Of a stretch of 24,667 nt of DNA, positions 5,542 through 23,872 are shown one piece after another (position 1 is the first letter of the stretch; each line of letters opens with the position of its first letter). The translations under genes and the position numbers were made by a program. Below the pieces are notes generated by a model. It was not told where the DNA came from, did not search any database, and saw only the letters and a program-made list of their open reading frames with translations. The stretch is from Abditibacterium sp. (lineage in GTDB: Bacteria > Armatimonadota > Abditibacteriia > Abditibacteriales > Abditibacteriaceae): assembly GCA_965199495.1 (NCBI GenBank), contig CBDASK010000001.1, positions 1 through 24,667 on the forward strand. Direction: 5' to 3'.

Positions 5542-5832
5542 TCAGACCTTCGGTTCTCTTTGGGGCAGACCGGGAAAGAGCGCGCGATTGCGCTCTTCGG
5601 TCAAACCTTCATCCAACCACTCTCTCAGTTTTGCCACCAGTTCGGCATCGGTTTCCGCTTTCTTTAGCACGATGGCACCGACTAAAATTTTGCGCCGGGT
5701 ATCTTGGGCGCGGGCCTCCTTTTTTCGCTTGTGGACGATTTGAGCGCGCTTCTTGGCAAGCAGGGCTTTTTTCTGCTCAATCTGTTCTTTGAGTCGTTCG
5801 AGTTCAGGGGCTTCCGTTGGCTGGTTTTGCAT
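5542..5832 (-). CDS. mobC: MOBQ relaxosome accessory protein (MobC/MobS/TraD-like)
   Basis: Coiled coil then ARAQDTRRKILVGAIVL…WLDEGLTEERNRALF. Divergent from the relaxase. GGAGA RBS supports ATG at 5832. Confidence 0.85.
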   Translation of the reverse strand: MQNQPTEAPELERLKEQIEQKKALLAKKRAQIVHKRKKEARAQDTRRKILVGAIVLKKAETDAELVAKLREWLDEGLTEERNRALFPGLPQREPKV

Positions 5833-5914
5833 TGCTTCTCCGAAATTGTCAGGTGCGTTCGAGAGCGGCAGTGTATAGCAAAATCGGAACGAATGAGAAA
5901 TGCGGAACGTTTCA

Positions 5915-5945
5915 GAATGGCGCACTTAGAGCAAACTTCGTTTGC
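5915..5945 (-). promoter_or_regulatory. oriT, RSF1010/MOBQ type; predicted nic between 5921 and 5920 on the minus strand
   Basis: The minus strand reads GCAAAC-GAA-GTTTGC-TC-TAAGTGCG^CCAT: an inverted repeat plus the TAAGTGCGCC core, between mobC and mobA. Confidence 0.88.
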
Positions 5946-5972
5946 GTGCGGTCTGCGACGCGAAAAAGGATC

Positions 5973-7127
5973 ATGGCACAATACCGATTAAGCGTATCCG
6001 TTGCCAAACGCAGCGAAGGCCGAAGCGCCACCGCAATGGCGGCGTATCGGGCGGGCGCGATAATTCATGACCAGCGCACCGGAGAAACCTTCGATTACAT
6101 CCGCAAAAGCGGCGTGCTGCACTCCGAGATGATCGTGCCGGAAAACGCGCCCCCGTGGGCGCGCGACCGGCAGGAGTTGTGGAATCGCAGCGAGGCCGCC
6201 AACCGGCGCAAAGATGCCATTGTCGCGCGCGAAATCTAACTCTCTTTGCCTCATGAACTGACCGATGCCCAGCGTCAGGAATTAACCGGCGATTTCGCCC
6301 GCTTCCTCAGCGACCGTTATCAGGTCGCCGTCGATACCAATATCCACGCGCCCAACCCCGATGGCGATGAGCGCAACCACCACGCCCATCTGCTGATCTG
6401 CACGCGCCCCTTCGATGAAACCAAAGCGCATGGACTGGGCAACAATCTCCGCGACTTCGATGCGGTCGCATGCCAGCGCGACGGTAAGGAGAATCCGGTC
6501 GAGCTTTGGCGCGCGACGTGGGCGCAGCAACTCAATGACTCTTTGGAGCGCGCAAGTGTGCGCGATTCGGCAGGGGAGGGCGTGGCCGTTGACCATCGAA
6601 GCTATGAGCGCCAAGGCATTGAACAGGAGCCAATGATTAAAGAGGGGTCTGCCGTCACCGGACAAAAGCGGCGCGGCGAAGCGCCCGAACGCGCCGAACA
6701 AAACAACGCGATTCGCGCCCGCAACGCCCAGCAGCAATGGGAGAGCGAGATCCAGGGAGCCGCGCAAAAAATCCCAACTCTGGAACAGAAGGTGTTAAGG
6801 CAACGCCAAGCGCAAGGACTTACAGCCGGGCAAGCCCACGCCCAGCTGCTGAGTGGGGAACCGAGACCGACAGAGTGGGGGATGCAGGAATTAACGCCAA
6901 AGGACGGCCCCCCAAATTCTCTCTCGTCCAACGCGGGCGCAGAAAAACACGCGCTATCTAGGTCGCCGGATAACACAGCCCCCGACGAAGAGAAACAGCG
7001 CGTGGCCGACGCGCTGGCCCGTCTTCAAGCCGGAGCGCCCATCCCCCAGACTGGCCCATCGCTTTCTTCTCCGGGAGCGATACCCGAAGAACCCCCACCG
7101 CCCGACGCGCCCTCACTGGGAATGTAG
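5973..7127 (+). pseudogene. mobA: MobA/MobL (MOBQ) relaxase interrupted by one in-frame TAA at codon 89 (6237-6239)
   Basis: MAQYRLSVSVAKRSEGRSATAMAAY(25)RAG…AREI*LSLPHEL…IHAP..DERNHHAHLL…VDHRSYERQGI. Both track ORFs share one frame. Confidence 0.92.
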
Positions 7128-7186: not shown

Positions 7187-9667
7187 TTAAAAGCGGGCCG
7201 CCAGAAGGATGACATCGCGGCGCGGCACTCGGGCGCGCGTGGTGATGGCCAAGGCGAGGTTAGGTTGCGCCAGCAGGGTCGTCATTTCGTCGGGATAGAC
7301 GAGGGGCACTGGGCCAAGGGAGGCGCGTGGCACCTGATCGGGCATGTTGACTGCCGCCGCCGCGCCGGATTGCCGTTTTTGGGGAATAAGGGAGTCCAAA
7401 CTGAGCGGCGAACCGGAGAAAGGCTCCATCACGCCCGCCCACTCGCGCATGGAGGGTTGCTTGCGTGCCGCCGCCATCGCGCCGCTGAACGCGTCCGCCG
7501 TGATGGTGTCGCGCACCGAAGCGCCCGGCACATTGTTCACCAAGGCACGCCAGCATGCGCCCGCGCGCTGCGACAGAAACGCATCTGTTGCCCGCGAACG
7601 GCCCGATAGACCGATGGCATTGCCGTAAACGGCCAGCCATTTGGCGGCAGCGCTTTCGCCCAACTTATCATTGATGCCTTCGATGGTTTGAGTGGCGGCA
7701 ATCATACCGAGACCCAGAGAACGCCCGATAGACAGCATCGTGGCGTCGTCTTGCGTTGCCACTTCCTGCGCTTCGTCAATAATAAAAACCAAGGGAGTCT
7801 CGCCCGTTTGCAAGGGGCGCTCTGCCCGCGCTTTGAGTTGTGAATAGAGACGAGCTTTGAGGAGCGCCGTGACGACCGCTCCGGCGCGCCCGTAGCGGTA
7901 GCCCGGAATCAAAAAGCCGAGGCGCCCGCCGTGTAGCGGCGCCATCAAATCGAAAGAGTCCTCGCCTTCCAAGGTGTCGGCCCATTTAAGCAGGTCGGGA
8001 TGCGCCGTCATCGTCGCCGTCCAACTCCGCGCAACCGACAAAACGCCGGATTTTGGTTTGGCATCCATCAGGTTCCACTCGTCGGCAAAGAACAGCACCG
8101 CCTCCTTGAGAACCGGATCCTCAAAAACTCGCTCCGGGGTGAGTTCTTTGGTGACGGTGCTGCGGGCCTGGTCGGAAACTGCGAGGCGCCCGATACCGGA
8201 AAGCGTCCACCACGCGCCGCCCGCAGCCTGGGCCAGCACCGCCGCACGGCGCAGCAAACCCATCGCGGAATCCGACCAGTAGGGATCGGACTCGCCGGGC
8301 GAGCGCAGAACGTCGGCGATGGTGTCCACCAACTCCACCGGCGTGAGACCACTCACTAAGGAAAACTGCGCGTGCGCGGGATCGATGACTCGCATCCCAC
8401 GCAGGGCTTGGAGTTCATTGGGCAAAGCGGCTTTGCCGTCCATAACGACCAATCCCACATCGGATAATTCGCCGAGTTGATAGGCCAAGGGGCGCAAAAC
8501 GCCGGAGGTTTTGCCCGATCCGGTGCCACCCGTGATCAAAACATGGTTTTGCACGTCGCGCAGACTTAGCGTAAAAGGCTGTCCCGCCGAAGGCGCGAAA
8601 AAATCCCCCCGTCCGGCCAAGATGCCGGTCGCTTCGCCCAGCTTCAGCATGGGAGTGGTATCCCGCTTGGATTCGACAATTTGCTCGTAGCGGGCCTTTT
8701 CCTGATGCTCCGCCCAGTGAATGCCGCCAGTCGCTACCAAGAGCGAGCCTTCCACCGCGTTCTGGCGATCCAATTCCTTGGCGCGTGCCTCGCCTGGATT
8801 GACGCCGGATTTAAACATCGCCAGTAGCATGATCGGCCCGACCAGATAAATGAACAGGCCCAGACCGCACACGCTGAGGGCGATCAGAACGGATAAAAAA
8901 CTAAAACAGGCCCGCCAGCCGCGCGCCACATCGTAGGCCACCATTGAAGTCGCATCCGTGTCCACGATCTCCGAGGAGAGGGGGCGGCTTTCGCTCGTGA
9001 GCCAGCCGTGTCGCCACACGTCGCGCAAATCTTCGGGCGTATCCGCAGGCACGCCGCGCAAAAAACAGCGTTGCACAGCGCCTCGGACTTCTCCGTGAAT
9101 CTCCTCCAAATCGCCCGGCGCCGTCAGCTTGGGCGCGAAAATCCAGACCAGAACGGTATAAGCGAGAAGGAGCAGGGAAACTAAGAACGCGCCGATCAAA
9201 AAGGCCGAGAGGTTCATGACGGCGCCCAGTCCGTTGGTCGCACCGGCGGCAGCGTTCTCATAAAAGGCGGCGCTGGGATCGGTGACGGCACGCGGAGCAC
9301 GCGAGGTGATGGCATAAACCAGCAACCCGGATAGGGGGTAACCCAAAGCGGGGATGGCCAAGCCGATAAGGGACGCGATGCGTTGCCGTTTAAACGCGTG
9401 CGCGCCCACAAAGCGGGCGACCAGGCGGTGATAGACCTGCCGGGCGATTTCGGCGGTGCGGCCATTATGCACGGGCGGCTCCATAATCAGAGCATCCAAC
9501 TTCATGCCCTGCCAGTAACGCGCTGCATTGAAGCCGAGCGTTTCCCAGTTTTGAGAGCGAAAGGCGCGCGGTTTCCACTCCCAAGTCGGAGTCCAAGTAA
9601 TCGGGTCTTCGACGTTGGTAATGTCGTTCAAAGCGGCTTGTTGAGGCAAGGGCGAGGAAGTATTCAT
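7187..9667 (-). CDS. Type IV coupling protein (VirD4/TraD/TraG-like ATPase) with a multi-TM N-terminus
   Basis: Walker A HVLITGGTGSGKT (~8507-8530), VMDGK, DPYW, Walker B FIIDEAQ, GRSLG..ATQ. Several N-terminal hydrophobic helices. Next to the relaxase. Confidence 0.88.
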   Translation of the reverse strand: MNTSSPLPQQAALNDITNVEDPITWTPTWEWKPRAFRSQNWETLGFNAARYWQGMKLDALIMEPPVHNGRTAEIARQVYHRLVARFVGAHAFKRQRIASLIGLAIPALGYPLSGLLVYAITSRAPRAVTDPSAAFYENAAAGATNGLGAVMNLSAFLIGAFLVSLLLLAYTVLVWIFAPKLTAPGDLEEIHGEVRGAVQRCFLRGVPADTPEDLRDVWRHGWLTSESRPLSSEIVDTDATSMVAYDVARGWRACFSFLSVLIALSVCGLGLFIYLVGPIMLLAMFKSGVNPGEARAKELDRQNAVEGSLLVATGGIHWAEHQEKARYEQIVESKRDTTPMLKLGEATGILAGRGDFFAPSAGQPFTLSLRDVQNHVLITGGTGSGKTSGVLRPLAYQLGELSDVGLVVMDGKAALPNELQALRGMRVIDPAHAQFSLVSGLTPVELVDTIADVLRSPGESDPYWSDSAMGLLRRAAVLAQAAGGAWWTLSGIGRLAVSDQARSTVTKELTPERVFEDPVLKEAVLFFADEWNLMDAKPKSGVLSVARSWTATMTAHPDLLKWADTLEGEDSFDLMAPLHGGRLGFLIPGYRYGRAGAVVTALLKARLYSQLKARAERPLQTGETPLVFIIDEAQEVATQDDATMLSIGRSLGLGMIAATQTIEGINDKLGESAAAKWLAVYGNAIGLSGRSRATDAFLSQRAGACWRALVNNVPGASVRDTITADAFSGAMAAARKQPSMREWAGVMEPFSGSPLSLDSLIPQKRQSGAAAAVNMPDQVPRASLGPVPLVYPDEMTTLLAQPNLALAITTRARVPRRDVILLAARF

Positions 9668-9752
9668 GAGAGGGCTGTGGAGGGTAAATGCTCGTTATGG
9701 GCGAATTTAGGAGGCTATAGGACGAGGGATAGGTCGGCTCAAGAGCGACCCT

Positions 9753-11075
9753 TTAAGGGGCACTGGCTTCCAGCTTTTGAATGAAGGCGATGTTGTCCCG
9801 CTCGTTAGCGTTCATCACCTGCTGATAAATAAAGCCCGCATTGTTGCTCGTGCCGCGATACCAAGGGCGCCCACGAAAATGCTCCGCTACGCGCAGATTT
9901 TTGGTGAAGATATAGCCGCGCCGCGCGTAAATGCCGTTTCGATAAAGGCGCAGGCTGGAACGGTCGGCACCTTCCAGGCGCACCTTGAGGCGCGCAAACA
10001 ATTGATTATCGCCCGGATTTTGACACACGAGAGCGTAATTGTATTGGCGCGCATGCAGAGAAATCATATCCACATCCTCTTGCAAGGAACCGGGCACGCC
10101 GGGGAAAGCCTCCGTTTCGGGCGAAGGCAATCCCTCGCCTCGGTTAGCCGGGTTATCCGCCGATCCATCAGCGGCGGGTTTTGTGCTTGGAATCGCCGGC
10201 GTTTGAAGCGACGCAGAGGGGAATGGTGGCGAGTTTGTCGCCGCCATCCCCGGCGTGCCGACTTTAGGCGGCAAAGTTTCGCCGCTTCTGGAAGCGAAAG
10301 AAGGCGCACGCAGGAGGGAAAAGGCGGCTCCGCAGACCACGACAACACTTAGGAGGGCCATCGGCCACCAGCGACGTAGCGCTGGTGGCGTTGGGGCTGT
10401 GGAGCGAGGTAACGGTGGGGCTTTTGTTGGTGACTTGCGTTGGCTATCGAAGGGAGGGGAGAGGGCCGCTCGCTGCTCGTCGTTCTGAGCTGGGGACGCG
10501 GAGAGTTTTGAAGGCGCGATTACGGGAGTTTCTTCGGGCGTGGACGCGGCGGGCATTCCACTGAGCGCAATCGGGCTTGGCTCAGTGTTGAGAGAAGATG
10601 CAAGAGTGGGCGCGGGTGGCTCGCTGGCCGTTGGCGCCGGTGAGACTGCGGTTAAATCGAGCGATGGAGGGGGAAGTAAGTGTTCGTTGGTCGCGTGTTC
10701 GCTTTCGGACGCCAGTAAAGAGGGGTTTTTCTCTGGCGCGATTGGCTTCTCGGTGTCTGATGCCGTTGAAGAGGCGTCTTGTTGAACAAGAATTTTTTCG
10801 GGCGCGGACTTCTTCAAAGAGTCAAAGGACGGGAGAGGTTCTTGGAGCGAACTGGCATCTGCTGGAGACGGCAGTTTCGAGTTCGTCAACGGTTCCGTTT
10901 GAGACGAATTTGGCCGATTTGCCGGTGATGAATTTGGATTGCGCGCAGGGGACGCCAGTAGGGGCTTAACCGGCGCCGAAGCGACCGGCGCCGGAGCGCT
11001 TAAATCTTGGCCGCACTGCGCGCAGAACGGAGCGTCTGCCGCATCTTCCACGCCGCAATAAGGACAAATGCTCAT
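9753..11075 (-). CDS. Zinc-ribbon / Pro-Ser linker / TM / YARHG-domain membrane protein
   Basis: CPYCG..CAQCG at the N-terminus, TM WWPMALLSVVVVCGAAFSLL, and C-terminal LRLYRNGIYARRGYIF..HF...PWY..NANERDNIAFIQKLE. Confidence 0.85.
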   Translation of the reverse strand: MSICPYCGVEDAADAPFCAQCGQDLSAPAPVASAPVKPLLASPARNPNSSPANRPNSSQTEPLTNSKLPSPADASSLQEPLPSFDSLKKSAPEKILVQQDASSTASDTEKPIAPEKNPSLLASESEHATNEHLLPPPSLDLTAVSPAPTASEPPAPTLASSLNTEPSPIALSGMPAASTPEETPVIAPSKLSASPAQNDEQRAALSPPFDSQRKSPTKAPPLPRSTAPTPPALRRWWPMALLSVVVVCGAAFSLLRAPSFASRSGETLPPKVGTPGMAATNSPPFPSASLQTPAIPSTKPAADGSADNPANRGEGLPSPETEAFPGVPGSLQEDVDMISLHARQYNYALVCQNPGDNQLFARLKVRLEGADRSSLRLYRNGIYARRGYIFTKNLRVAEHFRGRPWYRGTSNNAGFIYQQVMNANERDNIAFIQKLEASAP

Positions 11076-11217
11076 AGTCGCATGACACCTGAGGGAAAGT
11101 ATAACTAATGGGAGCAAATCAACCGAGTAGTGTCATAAAAAATTCATTCGACTTGGAGTTTTTGGAGAGCTATCTTAGAAGCTCTAAAAAGCATCGGCTC
11201 AGGAAAGGAGTTTGGAA

Positions 11218-15477: not shown

Positions 15478-15804
15478 CTAAATTTGAAGACTCTCCGTTT
15501 TTAATTGTGAGATAAGCGCATCTATCTTATCTAAGTAGGAAAGATATTTTTTTGCGTCAAGGTAAGCAACGTCATTGTCTTCCATTATTTCTAAAAGCTC
15601 TTTTCGCAGTTGCAAATCAGGTTCTATCAGTGACGAAGACGAAGGAATATATTCGTCATTGGTTAAAGCGATAGCAATTGCTCCTAACTCACCGTCCAAC
15701 AACACCAATCTTGTGTGCAAATCGTCTAATTCATCAAATTCGCTAACAGGCGGGAAATTGGCTTCCATGAAATTGGCGAGTGCGGCTGAGGTTTTTGAGT
15801 GCAT
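15478..15804 (-). CDS. Putative immunity protein for toxin 1 (108 aa, acidic, helical)
   Basis: GGAGA RBS supports ATG 15804. Lies 19 nt downstream of the toxin stop. AT-rich. Contains FPPVSEFDELDDLH. Confidence 0.7.
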   Translation of the reverse strand: MHSKTSAALANFMEANFPPVSEFDELDDLHTRLVLLDGELGAIAIALTNDEYIPSSSSLIEPDLQLRKELLEIMEDNDVAYLDAKKYLSYLDKIDALISQLKTESLQI

Positions 15805-15823
15805 GGTGTGTAATCTCCGAATT

Positions 15824-16351
15824 TTAACGGTATCCGAAGCTGATGATTTTTCCGTCAGAGGTATATATACCGAATGGCTTTCCTTTACCAAGTTTTATTT
15901 TTATGCCCGTAGTACCATCTCTCAAATTAATTGGTTTTCCCAAGCCCTTGTTGTTTGCGAAAAGATTTTCTGCATCTTTGGTGTATTGAGTTAATGAATT
16001 GCCTTCCCCATGTTTTTTCCAGTGATAAGCAATAGTATCGTCTAACTTTTCAAAACTTGAATTGTGCCACTTCGACCGCACCTGTTTAAGCTCCCGACCC
16101 AATCGCCCCAAAGTGCGCCCGCCAATATTGATTAACCTTCTGAGAGCCATTCGGCCCAGAATGCGAAGCAGTGAAGCGATGCCGATTTCTGCCAGCAAAG
16201 GAGCCAGAAGAAAACCGAGAACGATAGCAGCGATGATGAGCGCCCACACTCTGGGCTGGTTCATGCAATCGCTTAGGCCACTGCAATTGTCGGCGGAAGC
16301 GGGAAGTGCCCCTACGCACAGCAGGAACAACAGGAAAGGCCAGCGTTTCAC
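15824..16351 (-). CDS. Putative small polymorphic toxin 1: signal peptide, C-x5-C, hydrophobic helix, basic RNase-like (probable BECR) C-terminal domain
   Basis: GTG 16351 with GAGGAG RBS overlaps the upstream TGA. MKRWPFLLFLLCVGALPASA|DNCSGLSDC. C-terminal W..SSF…YHWKKHG…QYT…GIYTSDGKIISFGY. Confidence 0.72.
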   Translation of the reverse strand: MKRWPFLLFLLCVGALPASADNCSGLSDCMNQPRVWALIIAAIVLGFLLAPLLAEIGIASLLRILGRMALRRLINIGGRTLGRLGRELKQVRSKWHNSSFEKLDDTIAYHWKKHGEGNSLTQYTKDAENLFANNKGLGKPINLRDGTTGIKIKLGKGKPFGIYTSDGKIISFGYR

Positions 16352-17658
16352 GATATTGGCTCCTCGGCGTTGCGCGGATTTAATTGAGATTCGCGCGCCG
16401 GTTCGGGAAAGAGTAGCGAACACAAAAGCATGGAAGCCCACAGGGGCCGCAGCACCGGATAAAAATCGGACGCGTTGAGGTTATCGGCGATCATCAACAG
16501 GCTGAGTTGGTAGCTGAGAAATCCCGCGACCAGAATGCGAGCGATTAAGGGGATCGCTTCCATCCAATTTGCCCATGCAGTGACGCGCGGCAAAATGGCT
16601 TTGCGAAGCAGAATAGAGATCAGCAGCACTACGGCGGTTGTCGCCAGATAGAACGGCGTCATCAGGACGCCAAAGAGTAAGGCCACTAAAAGCGTCGCGC
16701 GCAACAGTTCGCCCAGCCAGACGAAGACCGCCGCGCCGCCCCCGGAACGCTCTAAAAGCGCATCGGCCAGACCATCCACCCGCTCCATGAAAGCGGGCTT
16801 GCCCGTCGCAAAGTATTCAAAGCCCACGCGCGCGACCGCCACCAGGCAAGCCGTCGTAATCAGGGGCGCATAGAGGTATTGCAATGGCTCGACAAAGCCG
16901 CGCTCCACGCGCGTTGAAACCACGTCAGGGTATTGATACCAGATAAACGCCGAACGCATCATCACGGCGGCGATTTGCCCCCAGAAGTAAACCGCCAGCG
17001 CGTAGAAGACCGCTTGCAAAGCGGCTTCAACTGGAAACATCAGAATGCGGTAATGTTTGGTGCCGAACTCTGTCAAAGTGGCCCCAAAAGAACGCCCTGC
17101 CCCGCTTTCGCGGGTATCGGTTGCAGGACGGTTTTCGGCATAAAGGAGCCAAAGCTGTTGCGGCAGTAACAACGTGATTTGACGCAAACGGGCGCTTATG
17201 ACCGGAACCGCCAGCAGCAGCAGTGCCATGATGCAATAAAGCACCAGCACACACGCCACATCCCGCCAGCCCTGTTGCCCGAACCTCTGTGAAACATCGG
17301 TGACGCGGGCGAAGCGCAGAATGAGCAGATCGCCGCAGATATAACCCCCCAGCAGCCACACTCCCAAAGCCGCGCCCAGACCGCTGACGGCGATCAGTGC
17401 GCCCACCACAAACAGCGAGGCGCTAAAAATCTGCCCTGGCAGCAGCATAAAGCCGCTCAGGAAAAAGCCGATGCAAAAGGCGACAAGGGGCAGGGCCGCG
17501 CCCACGCGTCCCAGTGCCGCCAAATAAATGCCGTCAGTCAGGGTTAGGGCGAACGAGGGGAAAACCCGCCGCACCAGCAACGGCAGACGAAACCATGCCC
17601 AACTTTCCGGCTCGGTCGAGCGGGAATTGTGAGGTGCGACCTGGGGAGAAGAGGCCAT
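16348..17658 (-). CDS. Polytopic membrane protein (~436 aa, about ten hydrophobic helices), unknown family
   Basis: ATG 17658 lies 8 nt after the previous stop; the track start at 17904 would overlap the upstream gene. No ATPase motif. Confidence 0.8.
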   Translation of the reverse strand: MASSPQVAPHNSRSTEPESWAWFRLPLLVRRVFPSFALTLTDGIYLAALGRVGAALPLVAFCIGFFLSGFMLLPGQIFSASLFVVGALIAVSGLGAALGVWLLGGYICGDLLILRFARVTDVSQRFGQQGWRDVACVLVLYCIMALLLLAVPVISARLRQITLLLPQQLWLLYAENRPATDTRESGAGRSFGATLTEFGTKHYRILMFPVEAALQAVFYALAVYFWGQIAAVMMRSAFIWYQYPDVVSTRVERGFVEPLQYLYAPLITTACLVAVARVGFEYFATGKPAFMERVDGLADALLERSGGGAAVFVWLGELLRATLLVALLFGVLMTPFYLATTAVVLLISILLRKAILPRVTAWANWMEAIPLIARILVAGFLSYQLSLLMIADNLNASDFYPVLRPLWASMLLCSLLFPEPARESQLNPRNAEEPIS

Positions 17659-18299: not shown

Positions 18300-18409
18300 A
18301 GCTTAACCGGAGACGCGAAAAACAGCATAAATTTTTTTTCCTCTCGATTTATAATATGTTTTCTCATGCTTGATTTTGTGGCCATGTTTTGCAAAACTTC
18401 AAAGCCATC

Positions 18410-19456
18410 GTGAAATACTTTCTTAAAATTGCCGTCGCATTGAGTAGTGTTTTGTTTTCATTCTCCGCCGAGGCAGCGCCGCCCGAAACACTCAGCTTGT
18501 CTGATTTAATAAATCATCCCGAGCGGTGGCCACAAACCGTGACCGTCAAAAAGAACCTCAATTTTGCCAATGGAAAATCTGTCCGTAAAATGCAAAAAGT
18601 AGGTGTGGTAGATTTCGATGGAAAAGCGGTTACTCTCTCTTTCGAGAGTGATTGGAATTTCACGTTGTCACCGAAAGATTGCGATTTGCTACAAATAGCC
18701 AACCAAGCGTGGACTATTCTCACGCCTGACCAGCGCGCGATTGAAGCAGCAACTTTAGACCAAGACCCCTCACTTTGGCCGATAAAAGTAAAAATCCCTA
18801 ACGAACTACGAATGGAGGGTGGCGGCGGCATACCTGCTGGTGCCGAGCTGGATCTCATTTCTACGGAGGGTCAAAAGGTCAAACTTTACTCGCATCAACC
18901 AGCTACTTTAATCACCGTTTCTTTGATGAACACAGATTTGATAGAGCGTGCTCGTAGATTGGTGCTGATCCCTGCTAATAAAAGACCTTCGCGAGTTGCT
19001 TATGCGCTGAAAAAAATTATGGTGGATAGTGCTGGCCAACCTTATACCGATCCAGAATTGGAGAATGCACAAGTAATTGCGCTTTACTACGGAGGCGCAT
19101 GGTGCAAATGGTGCCGCGAATTCTCCCCCACTCTTGTAAAGTTCGTCAACGAAAAAACGCCTGATAATCCTTACTTTAAAACCGTAATGGTCAGCAGTGA
19201 TCAAGAAGACTCCACGATGTTGGCCTATATGAAAGAAAAATCCATGCCTTGGCCTGCTGTTCCATTTCATGATCTGGAACTTTCGGCGTTTTTACGTAGC
19301 TATGAAAAGAATGTAGTTCCTACTTTGATCATTTGTGATCGTTCTGGAAAACTGCTTGCCACGAGCTTACAAAAAGGGCCGGACGGTGCCGAGGCGGACA
19401 CAGATGCCGCCTTGCAGTCGCTGACCAAGATTTTGGACTCAGGCGCGGCTCGCTGA
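18410..19456 (+). CDS. Secreted tryparedoxin/nucleoredoxin-like thioredoxin with a tandem N-terminal beta-rich repeat
   Basis: Signal peptide ending AEA|AP, WCKWC at 19100-19114, VMVSSD, MPWPAVPF, VPTLIICD.SGK. Start is 18389 or 18410. Confidence 0.88.
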   Translation: MKYFLKIAVALSSVLFSFSAEAAPPETLSLSDLINHPERWPQTVTVKKNLNFANGKSVRKMQKVGVVDFDGKAVTLSFESDWNFTLSPKDCDLLQIANQAWTILTPDQRAIEAATLDQDPSLWPIKVKIPNELRMEGGGGIPAGAELDLISTEGQKVKLYSHQPATLITVSLMNTDLIERARRLVLIPANKRPSRVAYALKKIMVDSAGQPYTDPELENAQVIALYYGGAWCKWCREFSPTLVKFVNEKTPDNPYFKTVMVSSDQEDSTMLAYMKEKSMPWPAVPFHDLELSAFLRSYEKNVVPTLIICDRSGKLLATSLQKGPDGAEADTDAALQSLTKILDSGAAR

Positions 19457-19513: not shown

Positions 19514-21529
19514 ATGCGTTTCTCTCTCTCGCGCGTGACTGCGCTTTTGCTAATTGTCGCCACCGCTTTACCTGCGCAAGCAGATAATTTCCTTGACAAG
19601 ATCAAGCAAAATTTGGGGATTAGCGGTGAGGCACTCACCACCAGCATCAAAGATGCGACTGGTGAGGTTCCTTATTTAGATAACTTCTCACCGCGCATCC
19701 GGAAATCTTTCTCGACGCTGGCGAAGGATGATGAAGGCAAATTCTTAATCAAGCCTGGTGCCTATGTTGGCACGTTTCAGAGCTTTTGTCTTCATGCGGG
19801 CACTTACGGCCCAACACGCGGCAATGGTTATGTAACAGCTCCTTTGAAGGGGCCTAAAGCCTATGTTATTAAGCGTGTTCTTAAGCAAGCATCACGCTAT
19901 CCAAACATTCCGCAAAGCCAAGTTCAAACGCTGATTTGGACGATAGAAGCGGGCGTTGGCTATGAAGAAATGTCCCCGCCAATGCGGAAGACCCTTTCAA
20001 CTCTGCTGTGGGGCAAGGACGGAATTCCTTCCGCGAAAGAGATGAGAGATGTATGGGAACTTGCGGGCGGTTTCGGCCAGTTTGTGCCCGCAGATAAAGT
20101 CAATGATGTGCTGCGACAAATTGATGAGTTGCAACAGCCTTTGTTTAAGGCCCGCAATATTATCCGTCGGATCAATGCCCAACAAATCCCTTTTGAAAAT
20201 CTGAATTTCTCCGCTCTTGAAAGTGCCGCAGTTCTACAAGGTGAACCGCCTGCATATAAGGAAGACCGTTTCGTCCCCGATAGCCGATGGGTGTATTCAA
20301 AGAGCGGTTTGTTTTTGCGCTTCAATCCATCTGGTTACAGCCGAACTGAGATTGAGGCTTATTGTCCAGAACCGTTTGTTATTCGCTCTGATAAAGTGGG
20401 ACGAATCAGAGAGATTGAGACCGCTGACCACGAATTCACCTTAAGAACAAATTATGTAGAGGGGATTCCAGCAGCGCGGCACCAAGCGACCGAAATCGTA
20501 TTGATCCGACGAGGCCAGGTTGTCTTTCAATCGGCAATCGGTGCTTTGCTTCCCGCTGGCGTTCCAACCAATATGACCTCTCGCGCTATACAGGATGTGT
20601 TGCGTCCTGATGTGACTGCGCATAGCAAAGACCTACAAAACTTGCAACGCGAATTTATCGGCAACAAGCCGCGCGCGTTGACCGGATTGATGATCAATCT
20701 GACGAATTATAAGGATGGCTTGACATCCGCGCTGGAGATCATACCGGATGAAGATGCGCGCAATTTTTTGAACAATTTTGTGACGCGCGCATGGATGGCA
20801 ACTGCCTATCAGTGGATCAACGAGGACACGGCGGGAGTTCGCATTGGACAGAATTTTCTTCGTAAAGATTTAGCAGGACAAGCGGGCTTTAGAGCTGTGG
20901 CTTTTCCCGCAGCGATCCCTTTGCTGGTTCCGGTCGTAGATACTGCCGTTGGTGTAATTCTCAGAATTGGAGCCGCCGTTATTGGACTAGAGATAGGTTC
21001 TACGGTTATTTGCCCAGGAGAAACAGGGCGGCAACGTCTGGGGATTTGCGAGTTGCCTTTGCCCGATGGAACAGTTTTGAATTCCGAGGAAAACGAGCAA
21101 TCCGCATGGCCACCAATACCAAGGCCAGATCCGACGACCGGAGGTGCAACTGCTGATCCGGGTGGAATTGACCCCGATCCTGACAATGAAAAATCGCCGG
21201 AAGAAAAACTGGAAGCCAAAGTCAAAGAAATTCTGGATAGGGTTAAAGCGGGTGATCCCAATGGTCAACAGAATTTCGGTGTAGGCGAGGGCACAGCCAC
21301 AGAAGCCAACGCTGCCGGTAGAGAATGGGTCGGCGAAGACGCTCGGCTTGCCAGCGATGGCAAAACACTGGTAAGTAAAGACGGCACCAGACAATACAGG
21401 CCACCATCGTGGAAAAAGGGTAATCCTAATAACCCCTTCAACCAAAACGGAAAGTCCCAAGCCAATTTTGAAAGTCGGCCAACCAATAGTGGCCCTTGGA
21501 AAACTAACGGCCACTTAGACATTAGGTAG
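19514..21529 (+). CDS. Putative secreted polymorphic toxin 2 with a C-terminal CdiA-CT-like (probable BECR RNase/tRNase) domain
   Basis: Signal peptide ending AQA|DN. C-terminus NFGVG..T..EA...G.EWVG..SDGK.LVS.DGTRQYRPP..K…QANFE…NGHLDI resembles enterobacterial CdiA-CT tRNase domains. Followed by an Imm8-like gene. Confidence 0.85.
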   Translation: MRFSLSRVTALLLIVATALPAQADNFLDKIKQNLGISGEALTTSIKDATGEVPYLDNFSPRIRKSFSTLAKDDEGKFLIKPGAYVGTFQSFCLHAGTYGPTRGNGYVTAPLKGPKAYVIKRVLKQASRYPNIPQSQVQTLIWTIEAGVGYEEMSPPMRKTLSTLLWGKDGIPSAKEMRDVWELAGGFGQFVPADKVNDVLRQIDELQQPLFKARNIIRRINAQQIPFENLNFSALESAAVLQGEPPAYKEDRFVPDSRWVYSKSGLFLRFNPSGYSRTEIEAYCPEPFVIRSDKVGRIREIETADHEFTLRTNYVEGIPAARHQATEIVLIRRGQVVFQSAIGALLPAGVPTNMTSRAIQDVLRPDVTAHSKDLQNLQREFIGNKPRALTGLMINLTNYKDGLTSALEIIPDEDARNFLNNFVTRAWMATAYQWINEDTAGVRIGQNFLRKDLAGQAGFRAVAFPAAIPLLVPVVDTAVGVILRIGAAVIGLEIGSTVICPGETGRQRLGICELPLPDGTVLNSEENEQSAWPPIPRPDPTTGGATADPGGIDPDPDNEKSPEEKLEAKVKEILDRVKAGDPNGQQNFGVGEGTATEANAAGREWVGEDARLASDGKTLVSKDGTRQYRPPSWKKGNPNNPFNQNGKSQANFESRPTNSGPWKTNGHLDIR

Positions 21530-21537
21530 ATAATGCT

Positions 21538-21906
21538 ATGATTTCTCAAATAAAGCGACTTGTTAGCCCAGACGTTTCGGAACTTGAAGGATTTAATCCG
21601 ACAAGAGCCGAATCCTTTGGAATTTTGATCGAGATATTTATAGGCGAGCCAGAGGAGATTGCAGAAGATCGGTTTCAGATATACGTATGCACTCCTCTTT
21701 GGCTTTCGGAAAATTTCGATAAAGTATTATTACACTTTGACGCCTCTATTTTTTTATGTGGCAGAGGTTTTTTATTGACTAAATATTATGTTTATGAAGA
21801 TGTCAAAAAAGAAATATACAAACTATTTGATGGTGTAAGTGGTAAAGATTGGCGAGAGATAAGTCAAAAACTAAGCATGTTAAGCTGGTGGGAGTTCGAT
21901 AACTGA
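21538..21906 (+). CDS. Immunity protein, Imm8-like
   Basis: SPDV, FG.LI..FIG, D.F..YVCTP.WL, GR..L, G.DW.EI..KL….WEF. AT-rich, 8 nt after the toxin stop. Confidence 0.85.
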   Translation: MISQIKRLVSPDVSELEGFNPTRAESFGILIEIFIGEPEEIAEDRFQIYVCTPLWLSENFDKVLLHFDASIFLCGRGFLLTKYYVYEDVKKEIYKLFDGVSGKDWREISQKLSMLSWWEFDN

Positions 21907-23317: not shown

Positions 23318-23872
23318 TTATTTTGGCGTGCCGTAAATACCATAGTAAGCAACGTAATAACTAGTAGGTGCATCAAACTTAAGCCCAGTATCAAGCATAC
23401 AGGCTATTTTTGCTCCGGGGATGAAATTATAATACACATAATCTGTTATTGTTGCAGGAACAACTCCTGTTCGCAGAGCTTCTATTTGCTTGCAGACATT
23501 AATTTTACTGGCGTCCATTCTGACATACATAACAGGGCTATTCATTGCCCCCACCCCATAGAAAACACACAATGCTTTGCCGGAACAATTGTAAGTTAAT
23601 GTCTTTGTGGCAGCGTCAGGAAAAGGAACGGAAGAGAGATATTTTGGCACAAGAAAATCTAAATCGTTCCATCCACTCGGCTCCCATTGTGTGCTATTTT
23701 CGGCATTATAAAACTGGAGTGCCGCGTTCGCCTGTTCAAAGGCATTCACAATTTCATTGGCTTGTGCTTTAGCTTGCCCCTGCATAAATGCCTCTCCACC
23801 ATAATAAGCCCCCATGAGCGCAGCCACTGCGACCAGCGCAATAGAAATAACGGTGATTATAAGATTTGACAT
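23318..23872 (-). CDS. Type IV pilin-like protein lacking a class III leader
   Basis: N-terminal hydrophobic helix running into an amphipathic helix (YYGGEAFMQGQAKAQA..EQ..AALQFY), LVPKYLSSVP, four Cys. AT-rich. Confidence 0.6.
   Translation of the reverse strand: MSNLIITVISIALVAVAALMGAYYGGEAFMQGQAKAQANEIVNAFEQANAALQFYNAENSTQWEPSGWNDLDFLVPKYLSSVPFPDAATKTLTYNCSGKALCVFYGVGAMNSPVMYVRMDASKINVCKQIEALRTGVVPATITDYVYYNFIPGAKIACMLDTGLKFDAPTSYYVAYYGIYGTPK

Follow-up and report, generated by a model that had tools for sequence, protein, structure and literature searches.

Thioester domains (TEDs) with a Cys-Gln bond have been described in the TIE proteins, among them Cpa, SfbI and CpTIE and the class II members BaTIE, SaTIE and EfmTIE86. 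In the portions of the two sources drawn on here (Walden 2015, PMC4450167; Miller 2018, PMC6194298), the domain is N-terminal, after the signal peptide, with Cys and Gln on strands at its two ends, and is marked by three motifs, [YFL]C-phi-zeta, TQxx-phi-W and a weak Gln motif; pairwise identity between known TEDs goes down to 5-12% (PMC4450167). The TED of SfbI binds a lysine of fibrinogen (PMC4450167), acyl transfer by TEDs is reversible and pH-dependent (PMC13685950), and other published contexts, again as given in excerpts, include a complement-type toroid and TED adhesins that act as protease substrates.

Polymorphic toxins of the Ntox7 type are the other point of comparison. In the parts of Zhang et al. 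(2012, PMC3482391) used here, Ntox7 is a predicted RNase of the BECR (barnase-EndoU-colicin-RelE) fold with DGx+xhR and N motifs, its predominant partner is Imm8, whose C-terminus is WE-aromatic, and MafB, CdiA, Rhs and type VII secretion system (T7SS) proteins are carriers. The Ntox7 row of that study lists MafBN, APD1, type V secretion system, T7SS and TcdB/TcaC routes, and 'thioester' is absent, as a whole word, from the 300,000 characters of it that were searched.

A locus on a plasmid of Abditibacterium sp. (Abditibacteriaceae, Armatimonadota) combines elements of both. The window, i.e., the whole stretch of DNA that was analysed, is the 24,667-nucleotide contig CBDASK010000001.1 of assembly GCA_965199495.1; it contains an open reading frame (ORF) of 671 residues at 19514-21529 and an Imm8 ORF at 21538-21906, which begins 8 nucleotides past the stop of the former. 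We consider it reasonably probable that the two form a plasmid-borne polymorphic toxin-immunity pair, in which a secreted carrier with a predicted Cys92-Gln507 TED would attach covalently and present an RNase tip. The polymorphic toxin system itself is of a known type; new is the prediction of its carrier as a TED. The features of the pair are the following.

19514..19582, plus strand: predicted Sec signal peptide, residues 1-23, MRFSLSRVTALLLIVATALPAQA, with an AQA cleavage site (AxA type; read from the sequence by eye)
19583..21061, plus strand: predicted Cys-Gln TED, residues ~24-516, broken by a ~200-residue insert (AlphaFold2 model, structural matches)
19787..19789, plus strand: codon of C92, in QSFCLHAGTYGP (FCLH); Cys in 59 of 60 rows of alignment A1, with one gap; in register with CpTIE Cys138
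19922..19939, plus strand: VQTLIW, residues 137-142 (Q138, W142), TQxx-phi-W helix motif; Q and W each in 60 of 60 rows of A1
20372..20998, plus strand: optional insert, residues ~287-495, comprising a beta-sheet with weak YD/Rhs-repeat likeness, a helical bundle and a hydrophobic stretch (from Cys-Gln spacing and model secondary structure)
20894..20998, plus strand: hydrophobic Ala/Val/Gly/Ile stretch, residues 461-495, candidate membrane-entry helix (maximum 19-residue hydropathy 1.98)
21011..21040, plus strand: CPGETGRQRL hairpin, where the constant region ends, including the predicted thioester residue Gln507 (codon 21032-21034); Gln in 58 of 60 rows of A1; in register with CpTIE Gln267 and SfbI Gln261
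21062..21193, plus strand: Pro/Asp/Gly-rich linker, residues ~517-560 (from sequence)
21194..21529, plus strand: Ntox7-type tip, residues 561-671, predicted BECR-fold RNase (66 relatives; invariant R629, P630, N651, N665 and H667)
21538..21906, plus strand: Imm8 immunity gene, 122 residues, ending in WWEFDN (PF15586, E 1.2e-23)

A preliminary description of the same DNA had listed a signal peptide, the motifs APLKGP, VQTLIW and GRQRL, a hydrophobic stretch, a Pro/Asp linker and a tip with YRPP, QANFE and NGHL; all are present in the 671-residue ORF, APLKGP lying in the carrier body, and the gene that it had called Imm8-like is borne out by the PF15586 match. It had also taken the body for an unrecognised scaffold that could be a new domain, and this was partly right: Pfam and NCBIfam indeed place it in no carrier family, while its fold is most likely a known one.

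The evidence for a TED lies in motifs, conservation and predicted structure. FCLH fits [YFL]C-phi-zeta, with C92 on strand E59-69 of the model; VQTLIW fits TQxx-phi-W and is located on helix H111-122; RQRLG, within CPGETGRQRLGIC (residues 500-512, including Q507), fits the weak Gln motif only loosely, as has been noted for class II, the residue that precedes Gln being polar. A search with the carrier body (residues 24-520) gives 60 proteins at E<=1e-3, the query included. The motifs that persist in the family are [YF]CLH, QxLIW and a terminal QRL, and the three other cysteines of the protein are found in only 6, 3 and 2 of the 60 rows of A1. The Cys-Gln distance spans 204-496 residues in family sequences, both residues being kept.

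The AlphaFold2 model of the carrier body has a predicted template modelling score (pTM) of 0.84. Compared with 48,161 chains, it has six TEDs in the top 50 (Z 3.7-4.4), and each alignment begins at or ahead of the Cys strand and reaches the Gln strand. A short natural relative that lacks the ~200-residue insert (L079; pTM 0.90) gives a clearer picture: TEDs take ranks 1-8 of the 48,161 chains (Z 5.0-3.9, root-mean-square deviation 4.0-5.4, 103-119 residues aligned), and the next chain, unrelated, has Z 3.3. Register was taken from where each aligned range starts and stops, the end strands being assumed to be ungapped. Counted in this way, all four TEDs testable at both ends fit the carrier-body model, CpTIE falling exactly on Cys138 and Gln267; the published Cys-Gln spacings of BaTIE (195), SaTIE (171) and EfmTIE86 (204) are reproduced, and SfbI fits at its Gln261 end. 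With the short relative, CpTIE, BaTIE and SaTIE fit, and PnTIE fits at Gln247 and is off by one residue at Cys94. In the ESM Atlas, the carrier body reaches 0.85 to an unnamed cluster; sequence searches of the PDB gave nothing for carrier body, tip or Imm8, and the A1 profile gave only weak Hsp70 helical matches (best E 0.003). Going by the models, the carrier body is most likely a divergent Cys-Gln TED, with C92 and Q507 predicted to occupy the thioester positions, and the bond between them very likely forms.

The preliminary description had further proposed PGxTGRQRL as a boundary between constant and variable parts. Unrelated tails do follow QRL in the closest relatives, yet the motif appears to be a boundary only because the domain ends there: GRQRL is the strand predicted to hold the reactive Gln, and since it closes the domain, the variable part starts right after it.

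Seen against the TIE proteins, the carrier shares the three motifs, the position after a signal peptide, the Cys and Gln strands at the two ends and, like the class II members, an insertion ahead of the Gln hairpin. The TEDs of the excerpted papers are Gram-positive, whereas the carrier family occurs in Armatimonadota, Acidobacteriota, Cyanobacteriota, WOR-3 and others; no LPxTG anchor is found in the last 50 residues of 204 family proteins (0/204) and no isopeptide stalk was seen. The plasmid protein also differs in its larger helical lobe, its different, optional insert of ~200 residues, and its toxin tip with an immunity gene. Complement C3/C4 and alpha-2-macroglobulin resemble it in principle, in that a buried Cys-Gln thioester tags a surface covalently; their fold differs, their Cys and Gln lie near each other in the chain, and complement-type thioester proteins are not among the structural matches of the carrier models.

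The tip is best named Ntox7-type, i.e., a predicted BECR RNase, judging from its sequence: DGTRQYR (residues 623-629) and the invariant N651 and N665 fit the Ntox7 motifs, a comparison made by motif description. Its motifs are RQYRPP, QANFE (649) and NGHL (665). The preliminary description had called it a CdiA-CT-like nuclease on a tip normally borne by CdiA, Rhs or MafB carriers. As an exchangeable polymorphic-toxin tip it is just that, and relatives do occur on all three carriers, with Imm8 as the usual partner; the likeness to the CdiA-CT of E. coli NC101 is one of residue order only. That protein, an EF-Tu-dependent tRNase in the sections of its paper used here (PMC5737660), shares the order Q-x-R, E, H in a predicted BECR fold, but the R-E and E-H distances are 24 and 14 in the plasmid tip versus 36 and 12 in NC101, and its immunity protein is all-helical, unlike Imm8. 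A kinship with NC101 found no support, with no PDB sequence match by single sequence or profiles; matches of the tip-relative profile (A2) to the PDB arose only via Rhs cores of other rows. A link to MafB2 B16B6 (RNase A fold) was likewise unsupported, and the published descriptions of SRLase1 and YxiD, as far as excerpted, did not identify the tip. There are 66 tip relatives (residues 561-671) among 584 candidates, of which 34 carry Rhs/YD annotation by eye count and others haemagglutinin or T7SS labels; in the ESM Atlas the tip falls among mixed toxin families at 0.87-0.93. In 300 other genomes of the same phylum, one weak match, broken by stops, was all that was found of the tip.

One Paraburkholderia CdiA locus (NC_010627.1, 110874-124421; L199 and L212) has both the plasmid tip family and the tip family of a close relative of the plasmid protein (P0003), as main tip and downstream cassette.

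The pairing of tip and Imm8 recurs on other carriers. In a plasmid collection, 11 records match the tip, and Imm8 lies directly downstream in all six that were opened; Imm8 is annotated in five of them, and in the sixth, an unannotated record with a locus of MafB type, an ORF matches it at E 3e-36. The WWEFDN end of the plasmid Imm8 fits the WE-aromatic C-terminus, and the gene has a GC fraction of 0.36 versus 0.49 for the carrier body. A model of the tip-Imm8 complex scores 0.86, the best of three controls 0.00; the mark applied is reached by 116 of 157 solved pairs and by 2 of 215 mismatched pairs. Runs share at least 90% of contacts, with a partner predicted local distance difference test (pLDDT) value of at least 90, and neither chain has a solved relative found by sequence. 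The model supports tip-Imm8 binding, with Imm8 predicted to sit on conserved tip residues, the interface taking in the invariant R629, N651 and N665. That the tip is toxic and that Imm8 neutralises it is highly probable. No experimental study of the Ntox7/Imm8 pair was found in the literature searched, and the pair here gains a structural hypothesis. Imm8 is present in 4 of 300 other genomes of the same phylum, with no TED gene in the fetched flanks.

The carrier family reaches well beyond this plasmid. A profile search gives 1,394 clusters at 50% identity, and a genome scan 544 loci, the best 80 of which come from Armatimonadota, Acidobacteriota, Cyanobacteriota, WOR-3, Planctomycetota and others; none of the carrier-body relatives has a carrier annotation, two scans of viral contigs gave no carrier-body relatives, and a metagenome scan gave one close-clade locus only, ending at a contig edge. 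A hydrophobic N-terminal 11-mer is present in 192 of 204 family proteins. In the tail survey of these 204, 171 could be assigned a Gln motif, three of them by hand: 34 of the 171 end within 25 residues past Gln, and the rest form 37 tail groups, the largest of which (35, 28, 14 and 12 members) are not toxin-like. Tails with family matches include FecR, VanY, Stig1, AMOP and zincin-like domains. The family would chiefly be a module for covalent binding outside the cell rather than a family of toxins, and the variation of tails that the preliminary description had anticipated among homologs holds for the plasmid protein's own clade, with four unrelated tails, while most other members are not toxin carriers.

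That clade (P0001-P0005) has a support of 100 in the Shimodaira-Hasegawa-like approximate likelihood ratio test, in a quick tree of 63 hand-picked rows that leaves out P0270. Its four complete members, with P0002-P0004 as the closest complete relatives, have four unrelated tails after QRL and keep C, W and the terminal Q intact at 40-46% identity. For the tail of P0003 there is a matching cassette in a CdiA locus (E 6e-8), and the contig of P0005 bears genes that, by eye, resemble RepA and MobA. Homologous by hhalign (99.2%, E 7e-20), a second subfamily includes a Nostoc plasmid protein with a CdiA_C tip (E 1.8e-18) followed by an annotated SitI3 gene; a near relative (L219) with the same CdiA_C-SitI3 order; a protein with another tail and an overlapping HEAT-repeat gene (L222); and a same-genus protein with a toxin-like tail and, after a short gap, an ORF cut by the contig end. 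L218, the same protein as L210, was counted once. On the quick tree the toxin label requires six changes, five of them forced by well-supported branches, several labels having been given by appearance. Tips that look like toxins occur on several branches, with Ntox7/Imm8 on the plasmid and CdiA_C/SitI3 in cyanobacteria, and are usually accompanied by an extra hydrophobic helix.

Three loci of the family merit mention in their own right. One acidobacterial genome has a tandem of two family members (L011, 5764-7368 and the ORF after it). In another genome (L189, G141:C1:3802000-3816000), short unrelated genes form a cassette- or polyimmunity-like array around a family member whose tail, by eye, looks papain-like (NC..). 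A truncated member of 174 residues in a same-genus genome (L191, 6089-6613; G010:C11) stops after the Cys motif, beside phage-like genes.

The insert separates the plasmid protein from the shorter members: the Cys-Gln spacing is 204-243 in 11 short relatives (of 66 loci scored) versus 415 in the plasmid protein. Weak PF05593 matches occur in 5 of 60 family members, and the stretch 417-462 of the body model (residues 440-485) has a pLDDT below 50. Hydrophobicity ahead of the Gln hairpin goes with the toxin label: nine of 171 members reach a hydropathy of at least 1.6 there (median 0.63), six of which are toxin-tipped; in the cyanobacterial set, toxin-tipped proteins score 1.45-2.03 and the others 0.35-1.02.

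From these elements a sequence of events can be proposed. The toxin protein would be exported by Sec, the Cys92-Gln507 thioester would form spontaneously, and the outer membrane might be crossed with the help of a chromosomal secretin system: the host chromosome, in a genome 95% complete, has eight secretin matches, one partial ShlB match and no VipB/TssC match. By acyl transfer the domain would then become joined to a lysine of a neighbouring cell, in the way that SfbI becomes joined to fibrinogen; the chances that the thioester reacts with a target-cell lysine appear evenly balanced. The hydrophobic helix may aid entry; it is doubtful that opening of the bond frees the hairpin, with helix and tip, for insertion into the membrane. 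Inside, the tip would cleave RNA, and Imm8 would protect carriers of the plasmid, which would also favour the plasmid itself. In a wider form, held tentatively and somewhat short of even, this TED family of ~1,400 clusters over many phyla outside the Gram-positives would have been recruited repeatedly as a carrier, the bond being both a covalent grip on a receptor and a latch that frees helix and nuclease. If so, it would be a bacterial counterpart of complement tagging in inter-bacterial war; and a bond used on the target would mean delivery by covalent capture, in place of non-covalent binding to a receptor or of injection, a scheme that we did not find in print. In the literature searched, which covered subscription journals thinly and lay outside supplements (e.g., the TED alignment figures of PMC4450167), no TED-borne toxin was found. 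Polymorphic toxins would gain a carrier class, an unannotated and widespread secreted family gains a concrete predicted chemistry, and TEDs would extend beyond Gram-positive adhesins.

Several results weigh against a covalently attaching TED toxin. The structural Z scores do not exceed 5.0, under the tool's own noise guide of 7-8; Foldseek found nothing at E<=1e-3 with either model, ranking the SfbI TED 39th both times (E 0.3 and 0.54); and no TED model of Pfam or NCBIfam matched any member scanned, whether the toxin protein, parts of it or relatives. Because the Z scores lie below the guide and Foldseek has no significant match, the register is given more weight than the score. The same low Z and missing Foldseek and Pfam support would suit a protein that is not a TED, in which the Cys and Gln motifs are coincidental or serve another chemistry, such as that of a Cys-dependent enzyme. 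This is very unlikely: eight different TED structures outrank all other chains, Cys and Gln are in register with the published bond residues, and both are kept although they lie up to hundreds of residues apart. The ancestral job of the domain is not toxin delivery, since a toxin tip is missing from most members and, among the listed loci of the best 80 of 544, no neighbour was conspicuously immunity-like. The tails of P0002, P0004, P0268 and P0270 are toxin-like by appearance only, with no family match, and P0002-P0004 were covered as protein sequences. Three of the nine most hydrophobic members have non-toxin tails, and P0244, with a weak Ntox44 match (E 0.014), is a counter-example that lacks a strong hydrophobic helix. 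Finally, the partner of the bond could be target, producer or matrix.

This last point bears on the idea of self-anchoring, in which the thioester would bind the protein to the envelope of the producer or to its biofilm matrix, where the toxin would be presented for contact-dependent killing. With no LPxTG and only two of the 204 proteins having a borderline hydrophobic C-terminus, the bond would be the sole evident anchor of a stand-alone TED, and many members are TED-only or have non-toxic tails. We nevertheless regard self-anchoring as unlikely, as characterised TEDs react with an external partner, in the manner of SfbI, a TED adhesin of B. subtilis is reportedly needed for conjugation (PMC8092201), and the extra hydrophobic helix points to entry into another cell. 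It is also quite unlikely that the body is only an exported scaffold, from which proteolysis in the linker frees a bacteriocin-like or plasmid-maintenance toxin, with a thioester idle in killing. Tips were gained or lost several times, as would happen if cassettes were open to capture by any exported protein, and the plasmid has a TacA/GNAT pair and a second toxin-like pair besides; but C, W and the terminal Q stay intact in the diverged toxin clade, and toxin-tipped members on separate branches share the added helix. Denatured complement C3 and alpha-2-macroglobulin reportedly undergo autolysis, and a similar self-cleavage at Gln507 could release the tip. Gln507 does lie at the junction of constant and variable parts, and no HINT, DPxG or other release-protease motif was seen in the protein; yet a cut there would strand the hydrophobic helix, TED-only members have nothing to release, and the excerpted TED papers speak of acyl transfer and of the reverse reaction, and not of a break in the backbone (PMC4450167, PMC13685950). 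Self-cleavage is extremely improbable.

The favoured reading of a covalently attaching TED carrier places the locus next to MafB/MafI of Neisseria, with which it shares a signal peptide, a constant N-terminal domain, a variable tip and an immunity gene; one MafB-type locus, mentioned above, even has the same tip family with Imm8. The N-terminal domains are unrelated, however, and the plasmid locus has neither MafA nor a downstream cassette array, no orphan toxin-immunity cassettes being found downstream of Imm8. The system works like a MafB-style Sec-dependent polymorphic toxin and, by the features tested, belongs neither with the TIE adhesins nor with CdiA, Rhs or MafB. Neither the protein nor the scanned plasmid ORFs have a Pfam or NCBIfam match to two-partner secretion/haemagglutinin repeats, an Rhs core or the MafB N-terminal domain, and the 26 plasmid ORFs give zero matches to CdiB, type VI secretion system or T7SS families, in agreement with the different carrier that the preliminary description had supposed.

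The contig is whole, a 24.7-kb plasmid in a genome of three contigs and 4.8 Mb in total. Genomes of the same phylum hold the subgroups of the carrier family that are found in Armatimonadota records, in keeping with the host's place there. A 17-nucleotide repeat at both termini, together with RepA_C, ParA, MobA and resolvase genes, indicates a small circular plasmid; the Pfam scan of the 26 ORFs gave RepA_C, ParA, MobA/MobL, ArdC, a resolvase, a TraD/VirD4-like coupling protein and the TacA/GNAT pair. Promoter and terminator counts at the locus are no higher than shuffled levels. Upstream of the toxin ORF lies one further gene, given for context only.

18389..19456, plus strand: exported thioredoxin-like protein (WCKWC; Thioredoxin_8, E 3.8e-15), 57 nucleotides upstream of the toxin ORF

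It is possibly co-transcribed with the toxin ORF, and is not conserved as a neighbour (0 of 160 related loci by tblastn). The toxin protein next to it has a Cys500/Cys512 pair that brackets Gln507; of 60 relatives, only 3 and 2 share these two cysteines.

The second toxin-immunity-like pair (15478-16441, minus strand) consists of a 205-residue ORF overlapped by an acidic, low-GC ORF of 137 residues. The former has a signal-like start (its own signal peptide), a DNCSGLSDC motif, a hydrophobic helix and a basic tip (..YHWKKHG..KIISFGYR); the pair has no Pfam, NCBIfam or plasmid-collection match, and a 518-residue membrane protein and a DUF6789 gene lie upstream of it. A 184-residue ORF (23318-23872, minus strand) has a pilin-like hydrophobic N-terminus by eye and no convincing Pfam match. 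The MobA/MobL relaxase gene (5817-7127) is interrupted by an in-frame TAA at 6237-6239, which makes it either a dead gene or a sequence error. The TraD/VirD4-like coupling protein (7187-11117, minus strand) is membrane-bound and is preceded by a zinc-ribbon / Pro-rich / YARHG protein.

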